Shown piece by piece: positions 21,297 through 62,648 of a stretch of DNA of 64,000 nucleotides. Within the stretch, counting starts at the first letter, position 1. Every line of letters begins with the position of its first letter. This stretch comes from a virus. Its lineage: Duplodnaviria; Caudoviricetes. The notes beneath the pieces are model-generated. The model was not told where the DNA came from. It made no database searches and worked only from the letters and a program-made list of their open reading frames with translations. A program made the translations under genes and the position numbers. The stretch lies in IMG/VR virus record IMGVR_UViG_3300032893_001402, positions 22 to 64,021 of that record; one strand, given 5' to 3'.

Positions 21297-22385
21297 TTAG
21301 TTGGCCAATCCACGCAGAGGCTTACCGCCGTAATCGTGGGGCCAGAGTGGAGGGTCGATCAAGTGCCGATGGTCCCCTAGCTCGGGATGTTGAAAAATGA
21401 ACGGCGCGGGCGGTTCTGTGCCGTGGTAGTCTACATACATAACTCGATGCAGGTGCGAGAGAAAAAGCTTGACCGCCCAGCGTCGAGCCCTCTCGTGGAC
21501 TTGCAATGGACGGAGCTTACCTTCCTTCCAATGCCCCCAGGTTGGACTCCCTTTCATTCTGCGCCGTTCTTTCATGTATTGCGCTGCAAGCTCCCGATAC
21601 TCGCCGGCTTCATTCCTCGCGGTTAGCTCGGCCTTTTTCTTCGCGTAGAGTTGGCCGTAGAAGCACTCATCGCGCCCCGAGAATTTTACGAAACACTCGC
21701 CCATACGATAGGCGCAAATTGCTTTGAGCTTGGCATTGTAAGGTCTCACGGAGAGCCAGGAAATTAGCCCTTCAGCGCCTTTCTTTAACGTAGTCGATTC
21801 CCGATCGAACGAACGGAATCCCTCGTTAAAGACGCGCACCGCGTTGACTTCGTGTTGGCCGCTAGCTGCTTTGATAGCCGTTGCCATGTCTTGGGTGAGA
21901 GTTTTTGAATCTCCGACTACCGACTTGACTAATTCTTCAGCTGCGGTTTTCCCCAGCCATTTGCAGGTCGGGTCGAGTCCGGCAAAGCGCCACATGTGCC
22001 CCACGGTCGGGGCTTTGGCAATGTCGAAGTGGCTCAAGAGCCCCGCCGAGATAACAGGGCCGATTCCGTACTGAGCTTGGAGCCAGCGGCCGACCGCGTA
22101 GGCCTTTGCGAATTCTCCGAGAGCGCTCTTTAAGCCCGACTCGAATTGGCGCATCGATGTAAAAATCCATTCGACTAAACGATAGGGCTCGCCCCCTTCG
22201 GCTGACGCTCTCTTCTGTCCGGCGGCGCGAATTCGTTCATCTTGCAAGCAGTAATACATATCAACGACCCACCTGGCATGCCTGCGCGTGAGACCCGCGG
22301 CGCTCTGCTGAATATCCTTTCGGAGCTTGGTGAAGAGTTCGATTGTAACGTCATCGATTTCGTTTGAGACTTCTAGGGCTGGCAC
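21297..22385 (-). CDS. Nop-domain/IS110-like RNA-binding protein without nuclease domain (TasA-like)
   Basis: Coiled coil (VDMYYCLQDERIR), GIGPVISAGLL, MWRFAGLDP, PYNAKLK, HERARRWAVKLFLSHL; lacks the N-terminal DEDD RuvC domain of IS110 transposases; likely GTG start at 22385 after GGAG; directly downstream of the 36-nt array. Confidence 0.8.
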   Translation of the reverse strand: MPALEVSNEIDDVTIELFTKLRKDIQQSAAGLTRRHARWVVDMYYCLQDERIRAAGQKRASAEGGEPYRLVEWIFTSMRQFESGLKSALGEFAKAYAVGRWLQAQYGIGPVISAGLLSHFDIAKAPTVGHMWRFAGLDPTCKWLGKTAAEELVKSVVGDSKTLTQDMATAIKAASGQHEVNAVRVFNEGFRSFDRESTTLKKGAEGLISWLSVRPYNAKLKAICAYRMGECFVKFSGRDECFYGQLYAKKKAELTARNEAGEYRELAAQYMKERRRMKGSPTWGHWKEGKLRPLQVHERARRWAVKLFLSHLHRVMYVDYHGTEPPAPFIFQHPELGDHRHLIDPPLWPHDYGGKPLRGLAN

Positions 22386-22420
22386 ACTTTGCTCCAATAC
22401 AAAAAGGTAAAACAACGCTC

Positions 22421-47983: not shown

Positions 47984-49339
47984 TTACTGGTCAGACGGAA
48001 TCGTGCTCGGCCAATGCCGCTGGACCTTGCGCGGCTCTTTGACGAACGGAACTCCCATTTCGTCCACAAAAATCGAAGCCACAAGCCGCCGATCGGCCAT
48101 CGTGTAGCTATCGGGAGTGGCGCGCGTCGTGGTGAAGGGGATGTTTTCGAGGTAGCCAAACGCGCCTTTGAAGTCTCCGTACCACCAAAGACCATTCGCG
48201 GTAGTTGCCGCGTCGGCAGAGTCCTGACTACCGTAAGCCGAAGTTTCCATCATGGCTTGCGCTTGCCGCCAAAACCATTGGCTAGACATCGGATCGCCGA
48301 TACCCATCTTCACCAGCGGATTATCGCCAAACATACGATACGTCGAAGTCTGGGTTAGCCGCTCTACGGTTGTCGTGCGCAACGTGTGCAAAGTTGTCGC
48401 GAGGTTGATCGGCGCTACAAGCAGTTGGCGATTGGGGCCGATTGAAACGGGCAATCCCGTCTCTTGATCGGTCATCTGAGTGGCGAGGTAAATCGCCGTG
48501 TTGATGTTCGTGTAGTCGGCCAGCGCGTTGCTTGCCGCTTCGTTTACCCAATTGCCGCCGCTGCTGACGTACGTGTTGTAGGTCACGCCGTCATATGTGT
48601 AAGTATTCACATTTCCGACAAATACGTCGGCCATGCGGATCTCTTTACGGATGCGCAGCGTTTCGACCACCTTCTCTGCGTTGGCCAGCACTTGGCCGGT
48701 ACGATCGAACAAGACGGCTTCGACCGTCACGTCAACGGCCGTACCGAAGTTCGTAGTATCGGGAGTCGTGACGTAGCGTTCCGTGAGCTGCATCCGCGCG
48801 TGCTGCTCGCCAGACTTGCGTTCCATAGCCACGTCGCCGGGAATCGAAACCCCGATAAACTTCTGAGCCCGCAAATCGCTGTTGATCGTTTCGGCTACTG
48901 AGTCGGCAATAAAGTCCGGCCGGTTCCAAACGTCCAACATCCGCGCTTCGAGCAGCCCTAGCGCAGCCGAATTGTACGGGGAGATGTCCCCAAACTGTGA
49001 AGGAACCATCGGAGCAGCCCCGGCGGCTTCCATCGCATGGACTTGAGTGGTTATCCCGCCGACAAGAATCCGGCGCAACTCTTCGTCCGACGGATCGCCG
49101 AAGAAAGCCCTAGCCAGCCCCTTAAAGCTGACTTCCTCGGGGCGCACCCGGCCGCCGGGAATCCCCTCGTAACTCTCCAATACCGGAGTCGTCCCCAGGT
49201 CCCCCGTCATGCGACGGCGCAGCGATTTGGTAGCCGGATCGTATTTTCCAAGCCCCAGAATCCCTTGAAGTTTGAGGCTGGCGACATGCGGCCCCTCTTT
49301 TCGCACAACGTCTCTCAAAGAACCCCAATCGAATGGCAT
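47984..49339 (-). CDS. Major capsid protein (HK97 fold, Mu gpT-like)
   Basis: Position after protease and decoration genes; FG..VDVTVEAVLFDRTGQV, LLVAP, WWYGDFK motifs. Confidence 0.85.
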   Translation of the reverse strand: MPFDWGSLRDVVRKEGPHVASLKLQGILGLGKYDPATKSLRRRMTGDLGTTPVLESYEGIPGGRVRPEEVSFKGLARAFFGDPSDEELRRILVGGITTQVHAMEAAGAAPMVPSQFGDISPYNSAALGLLEARMLDVWNRPDFIADSVAETINSDLRAQKFIGVSIPGDVAMERKSGEQHARMQLTERYVTTPDTTNFGTAVDVTVEAVLFDRTGQVLANAEKVVETLRIRKEIRMADVFVGNVNTYTYDGVTYNTYVSSGGNWVNEAASNALADYTNINTAIYLATQMTDQETGLPVSIGPNRQLLVAPINLATTLHTLRTTTVERLTQTSTYRMFGDNPLVKMGIGDPMSSQWFWRQAQAMMETSAYGSQDSADAATTANGLWWYGDFKGAFGYLENIPFTTTRATPDSYTMADRRLVASIFVDEMGVPFVKEPRKVQRHWPSTIPSDQ

Positions 49340-49439
49340 GAATAAATTCCTTATGCTGTAGTGCTGTCGCACTTGCCTGATAGTGCGCTGCGCGGCAACG
49401 TGCCGACAGCGTTACATACGAGAGCGGCCAGAGTGCCGC

Positions 49440-50307: not shown

Positions 50308-51699
50308 CTAAATCATCGACCGGCTACGCAAGCTACTCGCGAAGTCGGCCGGATCGAACGAAGCGCTTTTGTCGTTAGCCCCCGGCTTGGCGCTTTCCGT
50401 AACGGAAGAGGCCGGGACACTCTTCGGCCGAGCGACAGGAATCGCCTTCTTCTGGCCCTGCGCTTGGGTCGGATCGGCATTGGATTCCTTGACGGCGATC
50501 CAAGTGCTCACCAATTCCTCGGCAACGGCCTTGCTCTCGACAACGGCCGCCAGAGCCCTGACTTGAGACGGCTTTGGATTACCGATGCCTTTTTCGGCCA
50601 GCATGTTGCGAGCCAGAAGCTCTTGCTTCAACCCGCGTACTTCGGCTTGCAGAGCCGCAATCCGGTCGGGTTTGGCTTTGCCCTTGCTCTCTTCCTCGGA
50701 ATCCGTTGAAGCCGAATCGTTCGTATCGTCGGCCGCGCCTTCGCCTGACTGAGCCGAACCCGTCTGGCCGCTCAAGTCTTTGTGTTCCAGAGCGCTGGCC
50801 AGCAGCTCGCTGAACTGCTTGACCTTTTCTCCGTTGTCCATATCCGAGGAATAAAGCTTGCAGAGCTTTTCCGCCAGGTCGGCAAACAGCGGATCGCTAC
50901 TGCACATCTCGGCCACCGGCGATTGCTCCATAACATTCGCCGCGTCGTCATTGGTTGTTGCAGTTGCGGCGTTCGGGTTTACAGCCCCCGCCGGATCGCT
51001 CTCGTATCCAGGTCCCGTACTCATGTTATTGCCTTTCATTCCGCGAGGACTCCAGGGATTAAAAAGCGCTCCCTGATTGCGCTGGTTAACGATTTGCCAG
51101 TAGTTGTCTGGATTAACGCTCTCAAAAATCCCCTGGGTCGTAGCGGGGTCCGAGACGAGATCCACCGAACGTACTACCTCGATTGCTTCAACGATAATTC
51201 GCCCGTCTTGGATGCGTTGGCGCTGTAATGCGTTGTGAGACAGGCCGAGTTTGGTGGGGAATCTTTCGCAGTTTTCGCAGACCTGTTCGGCCCGGGGATG
51301 GCTCTTGGTGAAATGCAAATCTGCATACAACCCGTCTTCGCAAACTATGACGTTACGGAGTTCTCCAAACCCATCCTCAAGTTTGCGCTCTACCGTAGCA
51401 TCCGTCTTGCTGATCGGCTTGCCGGCCCCAGGATGATCGAGATAGACGCGAGCCCCTTCGTAGAGATTCTTGGCCGCTTCAAGCACGGCTAGAGGATAAA
51501 TACGATTGTTGCGGCTCTTGAGGCCGATGATCTTGACCCCATGAATCACGCCGTTTTCCCGATCGACGCGCGATGCAATGGCGCCTCTTGGGGGCGGTTG
51601 AAGATCCTCGAAGACCCAGGCGATACCGCGCTCTTGCCGGGATTGCGCTTGTCTTGCCGAGTCTGATTGCTTTGCTTGTTTTGTTGCCGTGCTCATCAT
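50308..51699 (-). CDS. Prohead protease-scaffold fusion
   Basis: SRNNRIYP, YLDHP (His), GLSHNA (Ser), SVDLVSDPAT (Asp), then acidic/coiled scaffold. Confidence 0.85.
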   Translation of the reverse strand: MMSTATKQAKQSDSARQAQSRQERGIAWVFEDLQPPPRGAIASRVDRENGVIHGVKIIGLKSRNNRIYPLAVLEAAKNLYEGARVYLDHPGAGKPISKTDATVERKLEDGFGELRNVIVCEDGLYADLHFTKSHPRAEQVCENCERFPTKLGLSHNALQRQRIQDGRIIVEAIEVVRSVDLVSDPATTQGIFESVNPDNYWQIVNQRNQGALFNPWSPRGMKGNNMSTGPGYESDPAGAVNPNAATATTNDDAANVMEQSPVAEMCSSDPLFADLAEKLCKLYSSDMDNGEKVKQFSELLASALEHKDLSGQTGSAQSGEGAADDTNDSASTDSEEESKGKAKPDRIAALQAEVRGLKQELLARNMLAEKGIGNPKPSQVRALAAVVESKAVAEELVSTWIAVKESNADPTQAQGQKKAIPVARPKSVPASSVTESAKPGANDKSASFDPADFASSLRSRSMI

Positions 51700-52487
51700 C
51701 AATTTCCATAATCCGAATATTCGAGCCAACATCTGCAATTAGGATGCGCCGGAGGTCCCTCGGGGAATTCTTCGGCCCATTCTTCGCTGGGCTTCTGATT
51801 CAGAGGTCTGCAAATAGGACAGACCTTGTCATCCTCGCTCGTATTCCAAATCCAGATACCCGTTGCGAACATCGCAAAGGGCACTTCGTCGGGAGAGATT
51901 TCCTTAGCGATAGGAATCTCATCTACAAGAATCGGCTTGCCGTAGCCCCCGAGTGGGATGGGCTTTAGAAGCCCTCGGCTAGCCGCGATTGCCGATCGCT
52001 GGCCCGCTGTATGGGCTCCCGTAATCGACGTGACGGCGAGCGTGGTAGCTCGATTAGGACCGAATAAGCGATCGAGGCCGGGCGGTGCGAGTCTTGATAC
52101 GGGTGGCCGCTCGTAGGGCCTGAGCAGCAGATAGGCAGCAGCTAATTCGGCGTCATGCTGCTGTTTAAGTTTGCCGTACGCTTCACGGTCTTTTGCCGTG
52201 GCTTCGTCGGCAATCTTTAAGGCGCGTTTTACCGCCCACTCGCGGGCGTTTCGCCGATTCGTCGCAATATCGCCATAGAGGGCATTGGCAGAAACTTCAT
52301 AGACAGGGGCAAGTGAAAGGGCTAAAGCCGACGCTAGTTCGTCGCGGTTGCGCTTCCAATATTCGTCTGTGACAGTTTGATTTGAGGCGACAAGGTCTAG
52401 TAGCCTGCGATGCTGCTTTTGTTGAAGAAGGAAAAGCGTGCCTGCAATAACCCGTTCATACGGGTAACGGTTAGCAAGGTCCGGCAC
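51699..52487 (-). CDS. Minor head morphogenesis protein (MuF / SPP1 gp7-like)
   Basis: W.TSEDDKVCPICRPLN..PPAHPNCRC. Confidence 0.85.
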   Translation of the reverse strand: MPDLANRYPYERVIAGTLFLLQQKQHRRLLDLVASNQTVTDEYWKRNRDELASALALSLAPVYEVSANALYGDIATNRRNAREWAVKRALKIADEATAKDREAYGKLKQQHDAELAAAYLLLRPYERPPVSRLAPPGLDRLFGPNRATTLAVTSITGAHTAGQRSAIAASRGLLKPIPLGGYGKPILVDEIPIAKEISPDEVPFAMFATGIWIWNTSEDDKVCPICRPLNQKPSEEWAEEFPEGPPAHPNCRCWLEYSDYGN

Positions 52488-52543: not shown

Positions 52544-53140
52544 ATGGGCATTCCAGATTTTCCAGGCTGGCAATTGCTTGGGGCTTTCCCGGACGGCGAG
52601 TCCGACGATGTCGGAAGCTGGCTGCTAGCGGACGGCCGCGAAGCCATGCTCTTGGAAGTCCCACCCGGCCTGACTCCAAGCTACGTGCTTTTTGCTCTTG
52701 AGCGCGCCAATGCGAAGCTGTGCTTCGTGACAGCATCGCATGACCACGAAGACCACCTTGACGCGGACGCCTGGCGTGCCTTGGAAGTGGCGTTCCCACG
52801 AACGAGATTTATCCATCCACAAGAGGTTGATAGATTATTCACGCGCGGCGACTTGAGGCTAACCATCGGAAGCGAGCCTCTTTGGCTCGTCAAAGCGCCC
52901 AAGCATTCGCGCACGGACATAGTGACGGTGTTTCGAGGTGTCGCCATGACCGGCGACATCGAACTAGGAACGCTGGACTCAGTCAACCGCGAAGTCCCCA
53001 AAAAAACCAAAGCCAAGAGCATGGAATGGCTGGCGGCCTTCCAAGATCGTACGGGATACCTCATCCATTTCATTGTCAGCGCCCACCTGAACGATTTTCG
53101 ATTGTCAGTTGATTGGCCTGCCCTCTTTCGCGTTTCGTAA
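52544..53140 (+). CDS. Metallo-beta-lactamase-fold hydrolase (moron-like, antisense to the head operon)
   Basis: SHDHEDH (HxHxDH), PKHS, TGD, SAH; extended -10 TGGTATAAT at 52528-52536. Confidence 0.85.
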   Translation: MGIPDFPGWQLLGAFPDGESDDVGSWLLADGREAMLLEVPPGLTPSYVLFALERANAKLCFVTASHDHEDHLDADAWRALEVAFPRTRFIHPQEVDRLFTRGDLRLTIGSEPLWLVKAPKHSRTDIVTVFRGVAMTGDIELGTLDSVNREVPKKTKAKSMEWLAAFQDRTGYLIHFIVSAHLNDFRLSVDWPALFRVS

Positions 53141-55004
53141 GCATGCTGCGAATAAACCGCACATGCGCCGGATCTTGGCCGGTAAGGTGCGATACGTAAG
53201 AATCGATGGTGAATGGATTGTCCGTCAAATATCCGGACTGGCCACTGTCGTTGGACGGATTGGCCTCGACAACGCGATAGCCCTTGTCGGTTTTCATCAC
53301 GTCCGGCGCATAAATCTGCCCTTGCCGCTCTGAGGCCGGAAGGGCATTGATTGCATCGACGGCTGCTTTGGCCATGGCCCTGGTGTCATCATTCTCGAAT
53401 ACCACCGGCAGCGGCGCATTCTTGATCCAAGTTGCGTGCGGTACAATCGAGGCGACTCCGTTTTGGGTGGTGATATGCACCCTGCCCTCTCCCGGAGCTA
53501 TTGTTTTGCCGGCCGCACGATCGGCGTCCGATACGCCTACCGCCGCAAAAGCTGGCTGGGCCATGAATTCCTTTCCGCCGCCAGGAAGCTCCGCGCCATG
53601 TTCGTTTTGTGCCGCCTCGGCCGCACGATCTGCTAACTCGCGCGCGTGTCCGAAAATCGTGTTCGCGTAGCTCCGGCTGCCAAACTTGTACTGCGTGCCG
53701 TCGGAACCTTTCAGGCCAGCAAGCCTGCCATCCTTGTCGCGGTAGAGTGATAGGCCGTACTGCGACAATTCCTTGTCGGCGTGGTGGATCGTGGATTGCG
53801 CGTCACGTTCGATTTGTTCGGCGTACTGCGGGAAAAAGATCCCGTAACCGGCAGCAGCTTCGTTGCCGTACGCTTTTACAATCCACCGACCCGCCCCATA
53901 TTTATCGTCCAGCTTCTTGCGCACATCGGGCGAGAGATGCGTAACTTCGTGGCCGGCGATCTTGTTGATGTCTTCGCTGGATTCGAGCCCTGGCAGCTTT
54001 TTGGCTTCGTCCAATTTGTTGACAAGGTTGGGTTCGGCAGATTGGAAGTCGCCAGGCTTATCGGCCTCGTAACCGCGGAACTCTTTGGGCTCGGATGAAA
54101 TGCTGCGCTTCCCCTCGATGCGCCTGCTCGACCTGTTGAGCGTAATCCCGGTGCGCTCCAAATACTTTTGAGCGAATTCAGCGGCCGGTAAACCGCCAGT
54201 GAAATCCTCGGGTGCCGCTGCACCTTGATACTGCACGTCCTGCTTGCCGCCGCCCCTACTCTCCCCAAGAGCCTCAAGAGCGGCCTCAACGCCCACATCG
54301 TTGACATGCGACTTCACCTTGTCGAGCCAGGCGGCTTGTTCGTGTTGGCCGTTTTTGCGGAACAAGCTCGCCACCCGATCAAGCTTTTCGTTTACTCGAT
54401 GGATTTCGGCGGGTAGAGCCTTAGGAGTTCCTGAACGTGCGGGCTGACGCTCACCCTCCCCGCCTTGACTAGCTGCTGCATCGTGGGATGCGCCAGACGC
54501 TCGCGCCACTGGTCCGCCGTCTTGCGGAGTGTCGCTTCGGCCGCTTGGACCTCCTTTTCCTCCTCGCTTGTCAGTGTCACTTTTGCCACCTCCTAGCTTC
54601 GATTTCAGCAGGTCTTTAAGGGCTCGAAACGCATGGCCAAGATGCTTGATACTGACGCCGCGCATGGATGGCGGAATACTTCCGCCGACGATCTTCCCAT
54701 CGCGATCCAGCAGAACTTTGTGGCCACCCCCTTCATCGTCGCCATGAATCGTAATCCAGTGCTCGCCAGATGATTCAAGCGCTGCGCCGTCAAATGACTC
54801 GGCTATCGCAGCTTCGCCATCGTCCGACCCAAGTTCTTTCGGATCGAATCCAAGGATGGCGGTCACGTCTTCCGGTGTTTCCGGCAACTCTTCGTCGTCT
54901 GGATCTTCGTCCACGACGGAGTGCAGCCCTGCCCTCCAGTCAATTGGCGCGCTTTTGGCATCGCCAAAATGAACATCGGCTGGCAGATCAAAAACGCGGC
55001 TCAT
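53076..55004 (-). CDS. Putative head-packaged protein with C-terminal ATP-grasp domain
   Basis: N-terminal HWITIHG..HKVLL motif; C-terminal WIVKA..GYGIF, FMAQP, EGRVH, APDV..YRVVEANP. Confidence 0.7.
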   Translation of the reverse strand: MSRVFDLPADVHFGDAKSAPIDWRAGLHSVVDEDPDDEELPETPEDVTAILGFDPKELGSDDGEAAIAESFDGAALESSGEHWITIHGDDEGGGHKVLLDRDGKIVGGSIPPSMRGVSIKHLGHAFRALKDLLKSKLGGGKSDTDKRGGKGGPSGRSDTPQDGGPVARASGASHDAAASQGGEGERQPARSGTPKALPAEIHRVNEKLDRVASLFRKNGQHEQAAWLDKVKSHVNDVGVEAALEALGESRGGGKQDVQYQGAAAPEDFTGGLPAAEFAQKYLERTGITLNRSSRRIEGKRSISSEPKEFRGYEADKPGDFQSAEPNLVNKLDEAKKLPGLESSEDINKIAGHEVTHLSPDVRKKLDDKYGAGRWIVKAYGNEAAAGYGIFFPQYAEQIERDAQSTIHHADKELSQYGLSLYRDKDGRLAGLKGSDGTQYKFGSRSYANTIFGHARELADRAAEAAQNEHGAELPGGGKEFMAQPAFAAVGVSDADRAAGKTIAPGEGRVHITTQNGVASIVPHATWIKNAPLPVVFENDDTRAMAKAAVDAINALPASERQGQIYAPDVMKTDKGYRVVEANPSNDSGQSGYLTDNPFTIDSYVSHLTGQDPAHVRFIRSMLTKRERGQANQLTIENRSGGR

Positions 55005-57901
55005 GTGCTCTGACTCCAGGTGGCAAACACCGTCGGATCGATGTAGCTCTGTAGCGCCACGGTTGGCGTATTGCCCAGCGCCTTGCTAACGACCGTGGCC
55101 ACCCGCTTCACCGTCTGCTTGTATTCCTTAGGATTCTTGCAGCAAGCGCCAACCTTTTTGATTTCATCGATCGCAAGCGACGTGCCTCGCAGCGTCCGAA
55201 AATCCTTGGGCTTGAAACTGCCGCCGTCAAGCGTGTGTGCATATTTGCGAAGCTCGGAATCGCTGACGCTGAACAAGCGACCGTCGCCAACGACTTGCTT
55301 CCGCTCGCGGAGCATCGAAGCAACTTTTGGGTCCGTGACAGGCAGGTCAAGCTTGACCCCCTTCTTCCCGGTAAATTGCAGCCGCACGCCATCTGGCGTC
55401 TCGATTACGTGGCTGCCGCGCAATGTCGTCGCTCCGTATGCCTGGGCCTTGGCTTGCGTGTCACGCTCGCTGCCAGGCCGAAGGCCCATCGACTGAATCA
55501 ACGCCAAGACGGTTGCAGCCTCGCGCGTTTTTGGATCCCCGCTTTCCATGTCGCGTGAGATTTCAGCTGCAATCCTTTTTTGCTTCTCCATCAGTTCGCT
55601 GATCCGAGCAAACTTGATAGCCGCCTGGCGTGTGGCGTGCGTATCGCTATAGATCGATTGCCGCCGCCCCTTCTCGTCATATCCGGTCGCCAGAAGATCG
55701 CCTTTAGGATCGGGGTTGATCTTCACCCCCGTCCAGGCCGGTGGAATCTTCAAGGCCGCGATATGCGCCGGCAGAGCCTTCCCGCCAACATGCCGCTGCG
55801 CGTCTTTGAGGTGCTTGCCCTCGGCATCCTTGGGATGGTCCGACGCATCGAGCGTTGGTGTCGATTTTGATGAACCAGACCCTCCCTTTGAAACAAACTG
55901 CCCGCCGCCAGGCCCCTTGCCCTTGTGTTCGTGCCCACTAGCGTCCTCGGCTTCTAGGACGCACCGCAAGCTCTCCAGGGCATTGCTGACGGCCTCTTGG
56001 ATTGATTCCCCAGGATCTTCGCCCGTAACCCCTTGTAGGCCTTGCGGAGGGCCCTGAGGAGGGCTTTGGCCGTCCGGTGGATTACCACCATTGGGGGGAG
56101 TGTCATCATTAGGCTTCCCCCCCGCTTGAACTATTTTAGCAATTGGGGGGAGTCCTACTGCCTTGCGCTTTTCTTGCTGGGTGTCGTAATCCAGCTCCTC
56201 TCGCCCCGACCATTCCTGAGGAGAAAGAATCCCGGCGTCCGAGAGGGTTTTATTGCGCGCCGTGGCCTTATCTTCGTCGCGTACCCTGACACTCGGGGGA
56301 ATGACTGTGATTTCCAGTACAGCGCGAATAATTCCCCAAGGTAGAATATCCGGGTTGCCGAACTCTCCACATTGCCAGGCGAACCAAAGAACGCGCAGCA
56401 AGAGTCTCTGCCAGCTCTCCACATGCAGACCTTGACGAGACTCGCATTCGTTAACAAAAGGATCGCCTGCTACAAGCAGGGACGCAAAGTTATTGTTGCT
56501 CGCGTCTCCCGTGAGCATGTTTTCGGGCATCGACCAGACTTGCGCCGCCGATCTCAGGCAGGTATCGCGGATGGCGATAAATTCGTTGGCGAACTCTCCG
56601 ACCGGAGCGGGCTTGAATTGCTTTGCGCCGTTGGTTTGAAGGATCGTAGACGAACGATAACGAAAGCTCGTCTCGTTCGGATTGTTGCGGCTAGGCCTGG
56701 CGCCGGGTTGAAGGTTATTCGAGGAAACAACGTCGCTTTGGAGCACGCCAGGCGCATACTCTTCAATCCAAGCGATGGCCGATTGAACGCTACCGACTCG
56801 GCCGATATTGAGTAGGAGCTTATGGGCAAGGTCAATGGCAATCTGCGAGCAGAATAGATCGCTGATCCCCCGCTTGACATTGGCATCCGTATTGCGCTTT
56901 ATGTGCTCGCACCAAGCCGCCGCACCTTCATCCGGCGGAAGAATCGGATTCACTCCTCCGGGGATATAGCTCCAACTCGTGTCGGCGCTGTGCCATTGGA
57001 AGTAATAGCCGTGGACTCCGGCAATATCGTCCTGAGGGCAATGCACTCCGAATGTCCAACTTGATCGGGGCATGCCGTTCTCTAGCGGCTCGATGCCCAA
57101 CCAGTTGTCCAGGTGTAAAGTGTTATAGGGCTGTGTGTTCTGCTCTGGTTCGGCAAAGCGGAGAGAGCAACGGCCCTCGCCGATATGCCATAAGGTCAAG
57201 TAACTCTCGCCGTCTCTTCCTAGCCGCAACTCGCTTTCACGCTGCATTTCGCTAGCGCGATTCTCGCCACAAAAATCCTCGATAATCGATTGCGCTCTGT
57301 TGACGAGCTTTGTGCCAGTCTCGGAATCGATAAGCCCCCGAGATGAGCGCTTTAGACTCACCTGGGGCTTGAATCCGCGAGGCCCGACAACATAGTTCTG
57401 AAGCTTGGCAAAAGCCCCCTTTGCCGTATCGTTATAAGCCGCTAGAACCCGCGCCATGCCTCGGATTAAGTGCAGGTCGGCCTCTGTATAAAAGATCGGC
57501 CGATTGCGACCCTCTTGGCGATCGCTGCGAGTCGTGGGGTAGGTGCCCCAACCGTAGTATCCGTAGCCCTTATCGGCCGTGAGATACTGCCAGATATTGA
57601 CGACTTCGGAGCCCTCGTTGTCGCACACGCTTTCGAGGGCTCGTTCTATCGAAGCCCCGCCCTCCAGGACATTAGCCAGGCCGAGTCTGGAATCTGGATC
57701 GACGGGAGCTGTCCCCGTCATTTGACGGCGCATATTCTCCCGTACCAGACGATTCGACTCTTTGACCGCTTCGGCGCTCTCGCCTAGGCTCTGAGAGAGT
57801 AGATCGCGCTGAGCTGCAATTTTGATTAGCAGAGCGTTCTTACGTTCGATCGCTTCGAGCCGAGATAACTCGGGATCGTGGGTAGTAGCTTGGTCGATCA
57901 A
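55001..57901 (-). CDS. Portal protein fused to a C-terminal type IB DNA topoisomerase
   Basis: Portal-like N-terminus (RDGESY, RGISDL, MPENMLTGDASNNNFAS); C-terminus has IPPAW, GRRQSIY, GLRPG, GKKG, KDFRT, LGNTPTVALQSYIDP in one frame. Confidence 0.88.
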   Translation of the reverse strand: MIDQATTHDPELSRLEAIERKNALLIKIAAQRDLLSQSLGESAEAVKESNRLVRENMRRQMTGTAPVDPDSRLGLANVLEGGASIERALESVCDNEGSEVVNIWQYLTADKGYGYYGWGTYPTTRSDRQEGRNRPIFYTEADLHLIRGMARVLAAYNDTAKGAFAKLQNYVVGPRGFKPQVSLKRSSRGLIDSETGTKLVNRAQSIIEDFCGENRASEMQRESELRLGRDGESYLTLWHIGEGRCSLRFAEPEQNTQPYNTLHLDNWLGIEPLENGMPRSSWTFGVHCPQDDIAGVHGYYFQWHSADTSWSYIPGGVNPILPPDEGAAAWCEHIKRNTDANVKRGISDLFCSQIAIDLAHKLLLNIGRVGSVQSAIAWIEEYAPGVLQSDVVSSNNLQPGARPSRNNPNETSFRYRSSTILQTNGAKQFKPAPVGEFANEFIAIRDTCLRSAAQVWSMPENMLTGDASNNNFASLLVAGDPFVNECESRQGLHVESWQRLLLRVLWFAWQCGEFGNPDILPWGIIRAVLEITVIPPSVRVRDEDKATARNKTLSDAGILSPQEWSGREELDYDTQQEKRKAVGLPPIAKIVQAGGKPNDDTPPNGGNPPDGQSPPQGPPQGLQGVTGEDPGESIQEAVSNALESLRCVLEAEDASGHEHKGKGPGGGQFVSKGGSGSSKSTPTLDASDHPKDAEGKHLKDAQRHVGGKALPAHIAALKIPPAWTGVKINPDPKGDLLATGYDEKGRRQSIYSDTHATRQAAIKFARISELMEKQKRIAAEISRDMESGDPKTREAATVLALIQSMGLRPGSERDTQAKAQAYGATTLRGSHVIETPDGVRLQFTGKKGVKLDLPVTDPKVASMLRERKQVVGDGRLFSVSDSELRKYAHTLDGGSFKPKDFRTLRGTSLAIDEIKKVGACCKNPKEYKQTVKRVATVVSKALGNTPTVALQSYIDPTVFATWSQST

Positions 57902-58167
57902 GTTGCGTTAATCGTCTTAGGAGGACGGATTCTACGCGGGCCTCGATAATTGAAAATATCGTTGGCCGTGAGGTTCATCAAGGGTCGATACTTCGCATCG
58001 AGCCAGCCTAAAAACCATTGAGTACGGGCTCTTTTGTAGGAAGCCTTCGCGCCGATAACAATCGGATAGGGAGTATCATTAAAGGCCATTCCTGCGCGAT
58101 AAGCTTCTGCTCCGGCATTCCAGGCGTAGGATTTGGAATCGTCGTCAATCAAGTTGGGTTTTGTCAT
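57898..58167 (-). CDS. Rmf-like small protein
   Basis: AWNAGAEAYRAG..TPY..RTQWFLGWLDA pattern. Confidence 0.6.
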   Translation of the reverse strand: MTKPNLIDDDSKSYAWNAGAEAYRAGMAFNDTPYPIVIGAKASYKRARTQWFLGWLDAKYRPLMNLTANDIFNYRGPRRIRPPKTINAT

Positions 58168-59121: not shown

Positions 59122-59376
59122 TCGCCGAACCCCGTTTCGTTCGACCAGGGCAAAGCGTGTGGGCCACCAGCCGTATTCGTCCTTGTCGAGAAACAGGTAG
59201 CCGCAGTCAACGTCCGTTACGGTGTATTGCTCTCCCTCGTTGACCTCATGTTCCGACGTGCCGCCACCTTCGCCGGGCAGACATTCCACAACGTCGCCGA
59301 CTTCTGGCATTTCGCCGGTGCTGTAGTTCCCTTCGTTACTTACGTACTGTCCGCAAACGATAACTGGCCGAGCCAT
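59119..59376 (-). CDS. IS passenger, small acidic beta-barrel-like protein
   Basis: EVGDVVEC..GEQYTVTDV..WWPTRFALV. Confidence 0.6.
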   Translation of the reverse strand: MARPVIVCGQYVSNEGNYSTGEMPEVGDVVECLPGEGGGTSEHEVNEGEQYTVTDVDCGYLFLDKDEYGWWPTRFALVERNGVRR

Positions 59377-59936
59377 TTACTTGATCCCCATAAAGCCCGC
59401 GTCCCCGGTAGCCGTGAGCACGCGGTAAGTGATGCGCTTGCCGACCACCTTGGCCAGCAAGCGCTGAAATCGAACCCCGTCGGTGCATATTGCGGGCCTT
59501 CCCGCCGATGAACGTTTCGTCTACCTCGACTTCGCCGGCCAGCTTGTGGAAGCTCGTGGTCTGCATCGCCAAGCGGATTCGGTGGAGCATAAACCACGCG
59601 CTCTTCTGGGTTATCCCCAGGCCGCGAGCCATTTCATAGCTGCTGATCCCGTTTTTGGCGTTGGCGATACACCAGACGGCGACCATCCAACTGGACAACG
59701 GCAGCGGGCTATCCTCGAAAATCGTGCCGACTTTGCAAGAGAACTGCTTACGGCAGCCCTTGGCGTTGCAGCGGAGCATGGAACGGGTAGCGATCGTGCC
59801 GACCTTTTCGCTACCGCACTGAGGGCAGACGATCGTGCCATCGGGCCATTTGGCTCCAATCATCGCCTTGAAGCACGCGGCCGGATCGGAAAAGTATTTG
59901 ACGGCTTCGACCATGGCTTTCTCAAGGTGTCGGTCA
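59336..59936 (-). pseudogene. IS1595 (ISXO2-like) transposase with internal deletion
   Basis: Zn ribbon CPQC..C..C, GTIFEDS, LGITQKSAWFMLHRIR, VEVDETFIGGK; then jumps in another frame to the C-terminal DGVRFQRLLAKVVGKRITY, so most of the DDE core is missing. Confidence 0.88.
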
Positions 59937-60150
59937 TGGCAAATCCTCAAAATCCAGTCATTGCGTGCGAATGTCCCCACTGGAACAAAGCCCAAAACAA
60001 AAGAGCAAATCCTGGAATGACTATGGCGATTTGCAAGCAGAGCCAATGCCAGTCTTCGTCCATCATGTTCATTCTCCAAAAGCCTGCCGGCGGCTTTCTG
60101 CTTGTGCAGGCGGGGTGATTAGGCCCGCACCGCCGGCAGGGGAGATCGTG

Positions 60151-61169: not shown

Positions 61170-62648
61170 TCACAAACTAGGGATCTGCTCCGTCACGCTT
61201 CCCCCATCGTTATTGTTACGATCGGCGAGGAAATTGATGCTTCTTAGTGCCATCTCCATCGCATCGGGTCCATCGTCGTGCAATCCGAGAGGAAAATTCT
61301 TCAATTGATCGACCAGAATTCTAGTCCCTGGAGTATCGCGAAAACTGACGGCGCGTTGTCTAAACCATGGATCAAGTCTGCGGATTCGATTCTCTTTCGC
61401 CACGCTGTTATTGACCAAGAGCCCTTCACAATCGAGGATTCCCGCGGCTTTTAATTGGCGAACGAACTCAGCCCCTAACAGGTCTTGCCAGGCGTTTCCT
61501 TCCGTAGCCAAAGCCTGAGGCTTGAAGCGGCGAACCAGCTCGACACCGTCGGCAACGATCTTTCCTGGCGATCTGCGAGCTAAGTCGGCTTCGACCCAGA
61601 GGTGGCCCGTTTCGTTCCAGGCCATTAGAATAAACGCGCTATAATCGCTATGGCGCGTACGACCCTTGCTAGGATCAAGGGCAATCACTCGCAAGGGCAT
61701 ATCCCGCGGCCAATCCCTGAACCAGAGGTCGTCTCCCTCGAAGTATTCGGGCGGCCACTCGACGCCAATACCTTGCGTCGGATTCTGCTGGTAAAGAGCC
61801 TGCCACCAGTAAAGGGGCATGCCGTTGCGGATCGTTTCTAATCCGCGCCGCAATAATCTGCCGTCCGGCGAGCGCAGATCGTGCAGGGGATAGCGGTCGG
61901 GCCAAAGGGCTTCTCCGAATACTCTCCCGAGGCTGTCGGATTCCGTGGCTATAGCCGGGAAGGACAGGACTCCCCAAGGTCGATCGCTTTCGGCTCGGAG
62001 CCTTCCCGCCAGGTCTTCCCGGTGCCAACGGGTCATGTTGACAATCACGCTTCCACCGGGCTCCAGCCGCGTCATCGCCGTGGAATGAAACCACTCCCAG
62101 CACGTCTCGCGCTTTACTTCGCTGGCGGCTTCCTGGGCATTCTTGATCGGATCATCGATAATCAGCAGATGAGCCCCTTTCCCCGTCAAGGGACCGCCGA
62201 TACCTGCCGTTTCCATCCCCCCTTCGTGTCCGATCAAATTCCATTCATTTGCAGCAAAGCTCCGATTGTCAATTGCTAAGACTTCGCCATGGTACTGCGC
62301 GAATAGTCTAGGGTCGAGCTGGTTGAACACATTGCGGGATAGTCTGCCATAGCGGCGCGCCTGGCGAGCTTCGTAGCTGACGTAGATTACTCGCCGATCT
62401 GGCCAACGTCCGAGATACCAGCAAGGAAGATACTGGCCGAGATACCAGCTCTTGCCATGCCGCGGGGGCATCTCGCAGATTAACCCAGGCAACCTACCTG
62501 TGACTAGATCCGTTACGCCCCGGTCCAATCTCAACAGATGCTTCGCCGGCTGCCAACGCCCCTGGCTCGCATACCTGGCAAACGTCGCCGGAGTCAGCGT
62601 GTACCTTAAAGAGTCGATCCCGCTCGAATTCGAGGTAGTTCGGATCAT
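61170..62648 (-). CDS. terL: Terminase large subunit
   Basis: MPPRHGKS (Walker A), LLIIDDP (Walker B), TRWH, ALDPS, HDDGPDA. Confidence 0.93.
   Translation of the reverse strand: MIRTTSNSSGIDSLRYTLTPATFARYASQGRWQPAKHLLRLDRGVTDLVTGRLPGLICEMPPRHGKSWYLGQYLPCWYLGRWPDRRVIYVSYEARQARRYGRLSRNVFNQLDPRLFAQYHGEVLAIDNRSFAANEWNLIGHEGGMETAGIGGPLTGKGAHLLIIDDPIKNAQEAASEVKRETCWEWFHSTAMTRLEPGGSVIVNMTRWHREDLAGRLRAESDRPWGVLSFPAIATESDSLGRVFGEALWPDRYPLHDLRSPDGRLLRRGLETIRNGMPLYWWQALYQQNPTQGIGVEWPPEYFEGDDLWFRDWPRDMPLRVIALDPSKGRTRHSDYSAFILMAWNETGHLWVEADLARRSPGKIVADGVELVRRFKPQALATEGNAWQDLLGAEFVRQLKAAGILDCEGLLVNNSVAKENRIRRLDPWFRQRAVSFRDTPGTRILVDQLKNFPLGLHDDGPDAMEMALRSINFLADRNNNDGGSVTEQIPSL

Follow-up and report, generated by a model that had tools for sequence, protein, structure and literature searches.

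A type IB topoisomerase fused to a phage portal protein, and its possible delivery from the phage head

The stretch of DNA analyzed here (64,000 nucleotides (nt), hereafter the window) comes from an IMG/VR virus record (IMGVR_UViG_3300032893_001402; 64,021 bases, classed as linear and ~80% complete), and its G+C content is 52–58%. On its minus strand, one gene (55001..57901; 966 codons plus TGA, from the list of open reading frames (ORFs) and its translation) encodes a phage portal protein that continues, through a disordered linker, into an intact type IB topoisomerase (TopIB). We are highly confident that the two halves are genuinely fused. The explanation that we consider best as a whole, and reasonably probable, is that the TopIB is a head-internal enzyme on a portal tether that would enter the cell together with the genome. 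The parts of this reading differ in strength: the presence of the TopIB in the virion is likely, and its action after entry, rather than during packaging, has slightly less than an even chance.

The gene was pointed out in a sequence-only reading of the window, which described one 966-amino-acid (aa) ORF with a portal-like N-terminus. Translation gave a single frame, unbroken from its TTG start to the TGA, and the portal assignment was borne out by matches to PHROG 21 and by Foldseek, as detailed below. The TTG start is supported because the N-terminus of a relative (P0003) is similar, as compared by eye. This TTG overlaps the stop codon of the upstream ORF (TTGA), and the TGA overlaps the ATG of the next gene (ATGA); such start/stop overlaps are the usual coupling within a late operon.

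The same reading had raised the worry that an assembly error joined two genes. Two adjacent genes could in principle have been joined by misassembly or by a lost stop, given that the gene lies on a single metagenomic contig of modest depth (11.2) and that the check was made against contigs only. However, a second assembler produced an identical sequence: a 23,454-nt Logan contig from run X1 (depth 11.2) spans positions 54800–58000 with no differing letters and no gaps. X1 is possibly the source sample, which makes this an independent assembly rather than an independent sample, and we draw nothing about habitat or a second occurrence from the one 151-nt piece from run X2. Relatives on other contigs that align colinearly over their full length also argue against an artefact. 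Specifically, P0002 (935 aa) gave a single colinear BLASTP alignment with residues 127–965 of the query (882 columns, 38% identity, E 5e-165), and P0004 and P0008 cover 88% and 86% of the query, respectively. Dozens of portal–TopIB fusions distributed over four portal families add to this, and for practical purposes an artefact can be dismissed.

The portal body (residues ~120–591; 56129..57544, minus strand) has a lambda gpB-like fold, as indicated by Pfam, PHROG, library relatives, the structural model, and the fold match. The sole Pfam portal model matched was Phage_portal_2 (PF05136; residues 141–490, E 8.2e-8, 32.2 bits against a cut-off of 32.9), and PHROG 21 ('portal protein') matched residues 139–603 with an E of 1.2e-23. 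An AlphaFold2 model of residues 1–639 (99 relatives in the alignment) reached a predicted local distance difference test (pLDDT) score of 81.4. Its best Foldseek matches were the lambda portal in prohead and virion (8xot/8xow; E 4.5e-15, target-normalized template modeling (TM) score 0.65–0.68), which upholds a portal fold for the N-terminus. The model had 125 PDB matches at E ≤ 0.001, all of them portals among the matches listed, and the portal half had 1882 library relatives at the same threshold. A long N-terminal helix (residues 10–62; 57716..57874, minus strand; pLDDT 81–94) precedes the body, whose last helices (residues 543–591) we read from the model as a putative crown. The carrier here is a portal; no MuF match was found in the 966-aa protein by Pfam or PHROG, and an NCBIfam scan of the protein returned 0 families. 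The gene for the terminase large subunit lies upstream on the same strand, which places the portal gene in the packaging/head module.

The portal body ends near residue 591 and is followed by a Gly/Pro/Ser-rich disordered linker (residues 592–710; 55772..56128, minus strand). It holds 22 Gly and 13 Pro in 119 residues, in agreement with the Pro/Gly linker described from the sequence, and the pLDDT falls below 50 from residue 598 on, with blocks for residues 640–710 scoring 44–69. Within the linker, comparison with related motifs located the junction or tag motif GHEHKGKGPGGGQFVSKGG, which the sequence-only reading had also picked out, at residues 656–674 (55880..55936, minus strand).

The remainder of the protein consists of two TopIB domains. 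The N-terminal beta-sheet domain (residues 711–752; 55646..55771, minus strand) matches Top1B_N_bact (PF21338) at residues 711–742 with 37.7 bits (cut-off 27) and has three strands in the model. The catalytic domain (residues 753–966; 55004..55645, minus strand), which is supported by Pfam, alignment, conservation, and fold, matches Topoisom_I (PF01028) at residues 761–949 with 78.7 bits (cut-off 23.7). In a phmmer search of PDB sequences, residues 712–961 aligned with the TopIB of D. radiodurans (2f4q, E 2.3e-20). The five residues expected at the active site were all found where they had been quoted: R808 in GLRPG (codon 55478–55480, minus strand as for the other four), K846 in GKKG (55364–55366), R902 in DFRT (55196–55198), N944 in LGNT (55070–55072), and Y953 in QSYID (55043–55045). 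They fall on 2f4q chain positions 137, 174, 239, 280, and 289, which we take to be the catalytic residues of the D. radiodurans enzyme. All five were invariant in 74/74 aligned modules, and among 67 IMG/VR ORFs the Asn column was conserved at ≥90% but not 100%. A model of residues 640–966 (pLDDT 86.6, 73 relatives) was confident over 710–966 and disordered over 640–710. Its best fold matches were D. radiodurans TopIB (3m4a, E 1e-13) and DNA-bound variola TopIB (2h7f, TM 0.65/0.68), and its top 22 fold matches were all TopIB. Judged by sequence and model, the C-terminus is thus predicted to be an intact two-domain TopIB of the bacterial/poxvirus type with a complete R-K-R-N-Y set.

The gene belongs to a sizeable class that is uncultured and, seemingly, undescribed. 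A homologue search over 5.8 billion proteins, limited to lengths of 531–1691 aa and to 8000 candidates, gave 142 matches, of which 120 were listed. The module was present in 119 of these 120 and was 43–61% identical to the query whatever the N-terminal carrier; in 101 of the 119 it ended within 12 residues of the C-terminus. By a hand count of Pfam entries among the matches listed, 52 carried Phage_portal_3, 4 Portal_Mu, 3 Phage_portal, and 4 Phage_portal_2 (the last including the query and P0003, which lacks TopIB). In the same count, MuF appeared in 8, the ADP-ribosyltransferase (ART) exoenzyme family in 7, NUDIX in 8, InPase in 8, and DUF2213 in 5. Pfam scans of ten examples confirmed Phage_portal, Phage_portal_2, Phage_portal_3, Portal_Mu, Phage_Mu_F, and DUF2213 as carriers, and also ART and InPase; P0021 and P0064 are among the module-bearing relatives with MuF. 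The search for portal-plus-TopIB architectures that had been suggested from the sequence therefore found the same module on four Pfam portal families.

A scan of IMG/VR that was free of the length filter identified at least 258 contigs encoding the module, and the best 80 of these 258 were fetched. Among 72 complete ORFs, the residues ahead of the module numbered ≥300 in 38, 60–300 in 27, and <60 in 7, and the module lay within 15 residues of the ORF end in 69. Pfam assigned 26 portal hits to 67 of the IMG/VR ORFs (19 Phage_portal_3, 3 Portal_Mu, 2 Phage_portal, and 2 Phage_portal_2), along with 4 MuF, 5 ART, 5 NUDIX, and 4 InPase. A scan of genome contigs found 13 loci, all in metagenome-assembled genomes (MAGs), whose bin labels ('archaeon', 'Paceibacterota') were not used for host inference, as phage contigs are often mis-binned. 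At L005, on a contig labelled 'MAG: archaeon', an open frame of at least 2335 aa extends beyond the 5' edge of the locus and has the TopIB module at its end, which points either to a giant polyvalent protein or to an unreliable bin label. Intein splicing domains (PF14890) were seen inside TopIB-bearing proteins, namely in P0043 (which also has MuF) and in 2/67 aligned IMG/VR ORFs.

With regard to cultured phages, tblastn against 50,697 GenBank phage records found the cargo module in none; two weak stand-alone TopIB matches and no portal match were obtained at E ≤ 1e-5. Nor did we find a portal–TopIB or MuF–TopIB fusion described in the literature, although one might be listed in the domain tables that supplement Iyer 2017 and Jamet 2017. 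The earlier statement that no characterized portal–TopIB fusion is known consequently holds as far as description goes, but the fusion is not a one-off, considering the number of contigs that encode the module. Enzymes as cargo of portal and MuF proteins are an already known theme, and TopIB as that cargo is apparently new.

The portal half has a history of its own. Its closest relatives carry other cargo or none (P0121, InPase; P0125, ART; P0126, NUDIX), and among 156 portal relatives a C-terminal extension of at least 120 aa was present in 49 and TopIB in 0. Long C-terminal extensions other than TopIB were also observed in the close portal relatives P0003 (1010 aa), P0121 (1497 aa), and P0132 (1897 aa), and these extensions are further uncharacterized portal cargo. 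In P0003, an HPR..G.F motif is followed by ~400 residues without a Pfam match.

To place the module relative to cellular enzymes, we compared it with TopIBs of one bacterial phylum, in which 22/81 searched genomes have a cellular TopIB (a count that includes the unpublished G060). These cellular TopIBs are 27–34% identical to the module, whereas cargo copies at other loci reached 42–56% in the same comparison. In a quick tree, 60 cargo modules and 24 cellular TopIBs fell on opposite sides of one branch (94 and 99 in the Shimodaira–Hasegawa-like approximate likelihood ratio test, SH-aLRT). Carriers were mixed within the cargo clade; for example, P0008, with a portal region that aligns with that of the query, and P0010, with Portal_Mu, were sisters at 99. 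Because the tree has no outgroup, it speaks for a distinct and shuffled module and gives no indication of the direction of transfer. Our sequence comparisons show that the TopIB module moves between carriers.

Ten neighbors of short, separate TopIB genes were scanned, seven upstream and three downstream. The upstream neighbors were a portal–MuF fusion (L058) and MuF-like or head proteins (L072, L088, L110, and L113) in 5/7 cases, and otherwise an Alt-like ART (L064) and a protein without a match (L102). Downstream, they were a head maturation protease (L088), a NUDIX/protease-like protein (L056), and an ATPase/kinase-like protein (L079). The module thus keeps to head-morphogenesis genes, whether fused or separate. 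These neighborhoods bear on the possibility that the TopIB is an ordinary cytoplasmic replication, transcription, or concatemer enzyme, co-expressed late with head genes and not packaged in active form. Stand-alone TopIB genes outside head modules do exist, such as top1E of BS162P1, which lies among early-looking small genes, and those of Motura and PaBG. However, stand-alone phage TopIBs are only 26–30% identical to the module, and the two included in the tree fall outside the cargo clade, on very long branches. The confinement of the cargo module to head-gene neighborhoods, as well as a tag-like motif that it has in common with Alt-like ART cargo, makes an ordinary cytoplasmic enzyme improbable.

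That motif, E..HPR...G.F..GGG, precedes the module and takes the form GHEHKGKGPGGGQF in the present protein. Its majority form is [DE]..F.E..HPR...G.F..GGG, of which GHEHKGKGPGGGQFVSKGG is a variant. Using a strict pattern (H, P/E, R/H/K, 2–11 residues, G, any residue, F/W), we found the motif within 120 residues upstream of the module in 74/118 homologues and a loose form in 29 more, compared with 0/118 shuffled proteins; the median distance to the module was 21 residues. In the model of residues 640–966 the motif is located in the disordered stretch. It is unlikely to be a plain interdomain spacer, because short TopIB ORFs retain it at their own N-terminus, in strict form in 9 and in loose form in 2 of the 16 ORFs in which fewer than 110 residues precede the module. 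Nor is it specific to TopIB, because it also occurs on extended portal relatives (after the portal body in 10/49), at residue 9 of a 199-aa stand-alone Alt-like ART, and at a portal–ART junction. The 80 IMG/VR loci contained 24 non-TopIB ORFs with the motif, compared with 4 in shuffles, in a six-frame list in which some of the 24 are clearly spurious; the 24 include the Alt-like ART, the portal–ART junction, and several unnamed genes that begin directly after the TopIB gene. Within the window, the motif occurs once in a real gene. Most simply, these patterns in sequence suggest that the motif is a head-cargo tag, i.e., a docking, targeting, or cleavage signal.

Six of the genes that follow TopIB (L051:6963-8186, L069:6010-6972, L078:6336-7919, L098:6993-8465, L117:6864-8195, and L120:6945-9482) have the full motif 59–102 residues from the N-terminus; most are without a PHROG match, and the one at L078 has weak head-morphogenesis and peptidase matches. 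A second Gly-rich junction motif, ~GSGNFGH.GRPG.VGGS, replaces HPR..G.F before TopIB in some proteins (P0021, P0055, P0100, P0107, L090:5917-6912, and L058:1872-2753), with three copies in the MuF–TopIB protein P0021.

How might such an enzyme be used? The C-terminal end of a portal is taken to face the capsid interior. One TopIB per portal subunit, up to twelve in all, would then reside inside the head on a flexible linker of ~120 residues, beside the DNA end that exits first. Going by general protein density, we roughly estimate that a full set of twelve (linker and domain, ~40 kDa per copy) would occupy far less than 1% of the interior of a capsid sized for this genome. The TopIB might accompany the genome into the cell, whether still attached to the portal or freed near the HPR..G.F motif, which would mark head cargo for targeting, docking, or cleavage. 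As infection begins, it could then relax supercoils on the phage DNA that is entering or on that of the host. A type IB enzyme relaxes supercoils of either sign without ATP, and the TopIB packaged in poxvirus virions assists early transcription. Support for head loading is indirect only and comes from the recurrence of the module on four portal families and MuF, from stand-alone copies in head modules, and from polypeptides shared with ART, NUDIX, and InPase.

The location of the enzyme on the portal also invites another explanation, in which the TopIB stays on the portal as a swivel that relieves twist during packaging or ejection and has no role in the host cell. Portals are indeed the commonest carrier, with 62/119 TopIB-bearing matches listed (hand count) and the 26 portal hits among the 67 IMG/VR ORFs, and the TopIB is at the C-terminal end, next to where the packaged DNA is taken to be. 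The failure to find a protease among the window ORFs scanned also fits the swivel. However, the module is found on MuF, DUF2213, and long ART/NUDIX/InPase proteins, or as a separate gene, which is hard to square with a job in the portal channel. Furthermore, ~120 disordered linker residues give no precise placement, many tailed phages package their DNA without such a domain, and most portal relatives are without it. We consider the swivel unlikely and favor delivery over a role confined to the portal channel because the module is also carried on MuF, as a tagged free protein, and together with ART, NUDIX, and InPase.

The company of these domains could instead suggest a toxin-like effector of the MuF type that damages or relaxes the DNA of an infected or competing cell, with an immunity protein for the producers. 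The module shares polypeptides with ADP-ribosyltransferase exoenzyme-type domains, and MuF carriers of toxin domains have been described (Jamet et al. 2017, PMC5576092). Nonetheless, we rank a toxin–immunity pair low because no small gene lies downstream: the next gene is an ATGA-coupled 642-aa ORF without a family match, and the downstream neighbors of stand-alone copies that can be named are the head protease, NUDIX/protease-like, and ATPase/kinase-like proteins mentioned above. Other downstream genes are unnamed and bear the motif themselves. The word topoisomerase has 0 occurrences in the main text of Jamet et al. 2017 (PMC5576092), and the conservation of all five residues of a rejoining topoisomerase is unexpected for a nicking poison. 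A toxin therefore seems improbable.

Several points weigh against a head-internal TopIB that is delivered with the genome. The Pfam portal score was 0.7 bits below the curated cut-off, and the motif was present in no form in 15/118 homologues, including P0002, the closest relative of the same architecture. The tree came from a quick search only, with a cellular sample of one phylum and no outgroup. Encapsidation, release, and activity are all things that we infer, and no cultured phage has the module (50,697 GenBank records). A head maturation protease was not found by PHROG or Pfam in the 33/66 window ORFs scanned, and cleavage is consequently without support in the present phage. Finally, fusion to the packaging channel fits a packaging role as well as it does delivery.

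If the TopIB is packaged and active, the phage could set DNA topology on arrival. Head-carried enzymes act before phage gene expression and so influence the earliest stage of the conflict with the host. Such a role is known or proposed for ADP-ribosyltransferases and nucleases; to the best of our knowledge, as far as our literature search reached, it is not known for a topoisomerase. Delivery of a TopIB, if true, would bear on early transcription, on genome circularization, and on defenses that sense DNA shape. The module is compact (~260 residues), conserved across carriers, and cofactor-free by family analogy, which makes it easy to test. If the motif directs loading, it could be used to place proteins of choice inside phage heads. 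With this clade, the TopIB family also gains a large viral branch, and a viral origin has long been suspected for the bacterial members of the family. A bolder proposal, which we hold to be doubtful, is that many uncultured tailed phages inject TopIB as a first-minute effector that resets supercoiling, in the incoming genome or the host chromosome, before gene expression, that the motif is a general procapsid address label for enzymes (TopIB, ART, and others), and that the clade is a candidate source of bacterial TopIB. An as yet undiscovered viral group was proposed as the origin of bacterial TopIB (Forterre and Gadelle 2009, PMC2647321). The phage cargo clade is a candidate for that group, a question beyond the reach of our quick tree.

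Turning to the surroundings of the gene, the terminase large subunit (61170..62648, minus strand; Pfam/PHROG) marks the packaging/head module upstream of the portal. Downstream of the portal, a weak capsid-like match (PF25209) was detected at 47984–49372, and a virion-morphogenesis protein and tail proteins are encoded further downstream. Genes for a DNA polymerase, primase, helicase, exonuclease, and methyltransferase lie in the left half of the contig. The 642-aa gene that is translationally coupled to the portal gene by the ATGA overlap (53076..55004, minus strand) had no Pfam or PHROG match, and protein-atlas leads to an ATP-grasp fold were sub-threshold (feature scores 0.85–0.86, TM <0.5); such a ligase, if real, would be an uncommon member of a head operon. 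No tRNA or tmRNA genes were found in the window (1–64000) by ARAGORN.

In the same operon as the cargo-bearing portal, a 262-aa ORF (51699–52487, minus strand) may be a short MuF-like head protein, as its last ~45 residues match the end of MuF (PF04233, E 2.4e-6, below the cut-off) and it matches several PHROG head-morphogenesis families. Between the terminase and the portal, a 247-aa ORF (59336–60079, minus strand) has an IS1595-type transposase zinc ribbon (PF12760, E 6e-10) and only the first 34 positions of a DDE domain (PF12762, partial and below the cut-off). It may represent a decayed insertion sequence within the head operon. A second mobile-element gene, a 372-aa ORF at 21297–22415 (minus strand), matches the PHROG transposase family phrog_4285 (E 2.9e-23).

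When compared with known systems, the module is closest to D. radiodurans TopIB (2f4q, 3m4a), which was its best PDB match in both sequence and fold and which, like cellular bacterial TopIBs in general, has the same two-domain layout, Pfam families, and five catalytic residues. Unlike the module, cellular TopIBs are free-standing, with open frames of ~340–440 aa and no portal or MuF carrier. The poxvirus enzymes (variola, vaccinia) are small type IB topoisomerases of the same fold, and the module superposes best on the variola enzyme (root-mean-square deviation 3.7 at the TM scores given above). They come from eukaryotic viruses, however, are 18–20% identical to the module, and are unfused to any structural protein.

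Among phages, the TopIBs of BS162P1 (Bacteroides phage) and BCSR5 (Burkholderia phage) are 26–30% identical to the module and unfused to head proteins, and no recognizable head module surrounds their genes in the two records examined. The TopIBs of Achromobacter phage Motura and Pseudomonas phage PaBG appear as viral fold matches only. There was no portal fusion among the named viral fold matches, and the top match was an unnamed protein of 957 aa. In some jumbo phages, a topoisomerase I that belongs to the tyrosine-recombinase superfamily, stands alone, and is specific to phages has been described (Iyer et al. 2021, PMC7824862); Motura and PaBG are two of these phages.

The closest conceptual precedent is provided by the polyvalent proteins of Iyer et al. 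2017 (PMC5512222), where enzymes fused to portal or MuF proteins were proposed to be packaged and injected. Their examples include PBECR, 2H, and InPase on portal or MuF, among them the portal–InPase fusion of BcepF1, and ART, NUDIX, and InPase are listed among polyvalent-protein domains, of which the phage-encoded ones are likely packaged in the capsid. As in those systems, the present gene places an enzyme on a portal among virion genes, and the module shares polypeptides elsewhere with ART, NUDIX, and InPase. It differs from polyvalent proteins in having one cargo domain only. TopIB is not named in the main text of PMC5512222, where 'topoisomerase' appears once (in a reference title) and 'tyrosine recombinase' never. 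MuF polymorphic toxins (Jamet 2017) differ in that, by the description given there, they combine an N-terminal MuF with a downstream immunity gene; the present protein has no MuF match, and the gene directly downstream is the coupled 642-aa ORF.

The lambda portal gpB (8xot, 8xow, 8k38), the best fold match of residues ~120–591, shares 15–17% identity with the present portal body. Lambda portal chains comprise 468–476 residues, whereas the present protein has ~375 more beyond its portal body. In phage T4, internal proteins bear a short N-terminal targeting peptide that is removed by the head protease. The T4 targeting sequence is unrelated to the motif described here, for which a targeting or cleavage role is our hypothesis. 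The parallel with T4 extends to its Alt protein, which is cited as a head-carried, injected enzyme (Iyer et al. 2017, PMC5512222): within the present class, an Alt-like ART and the TopIB bear the same N-terminal motif.

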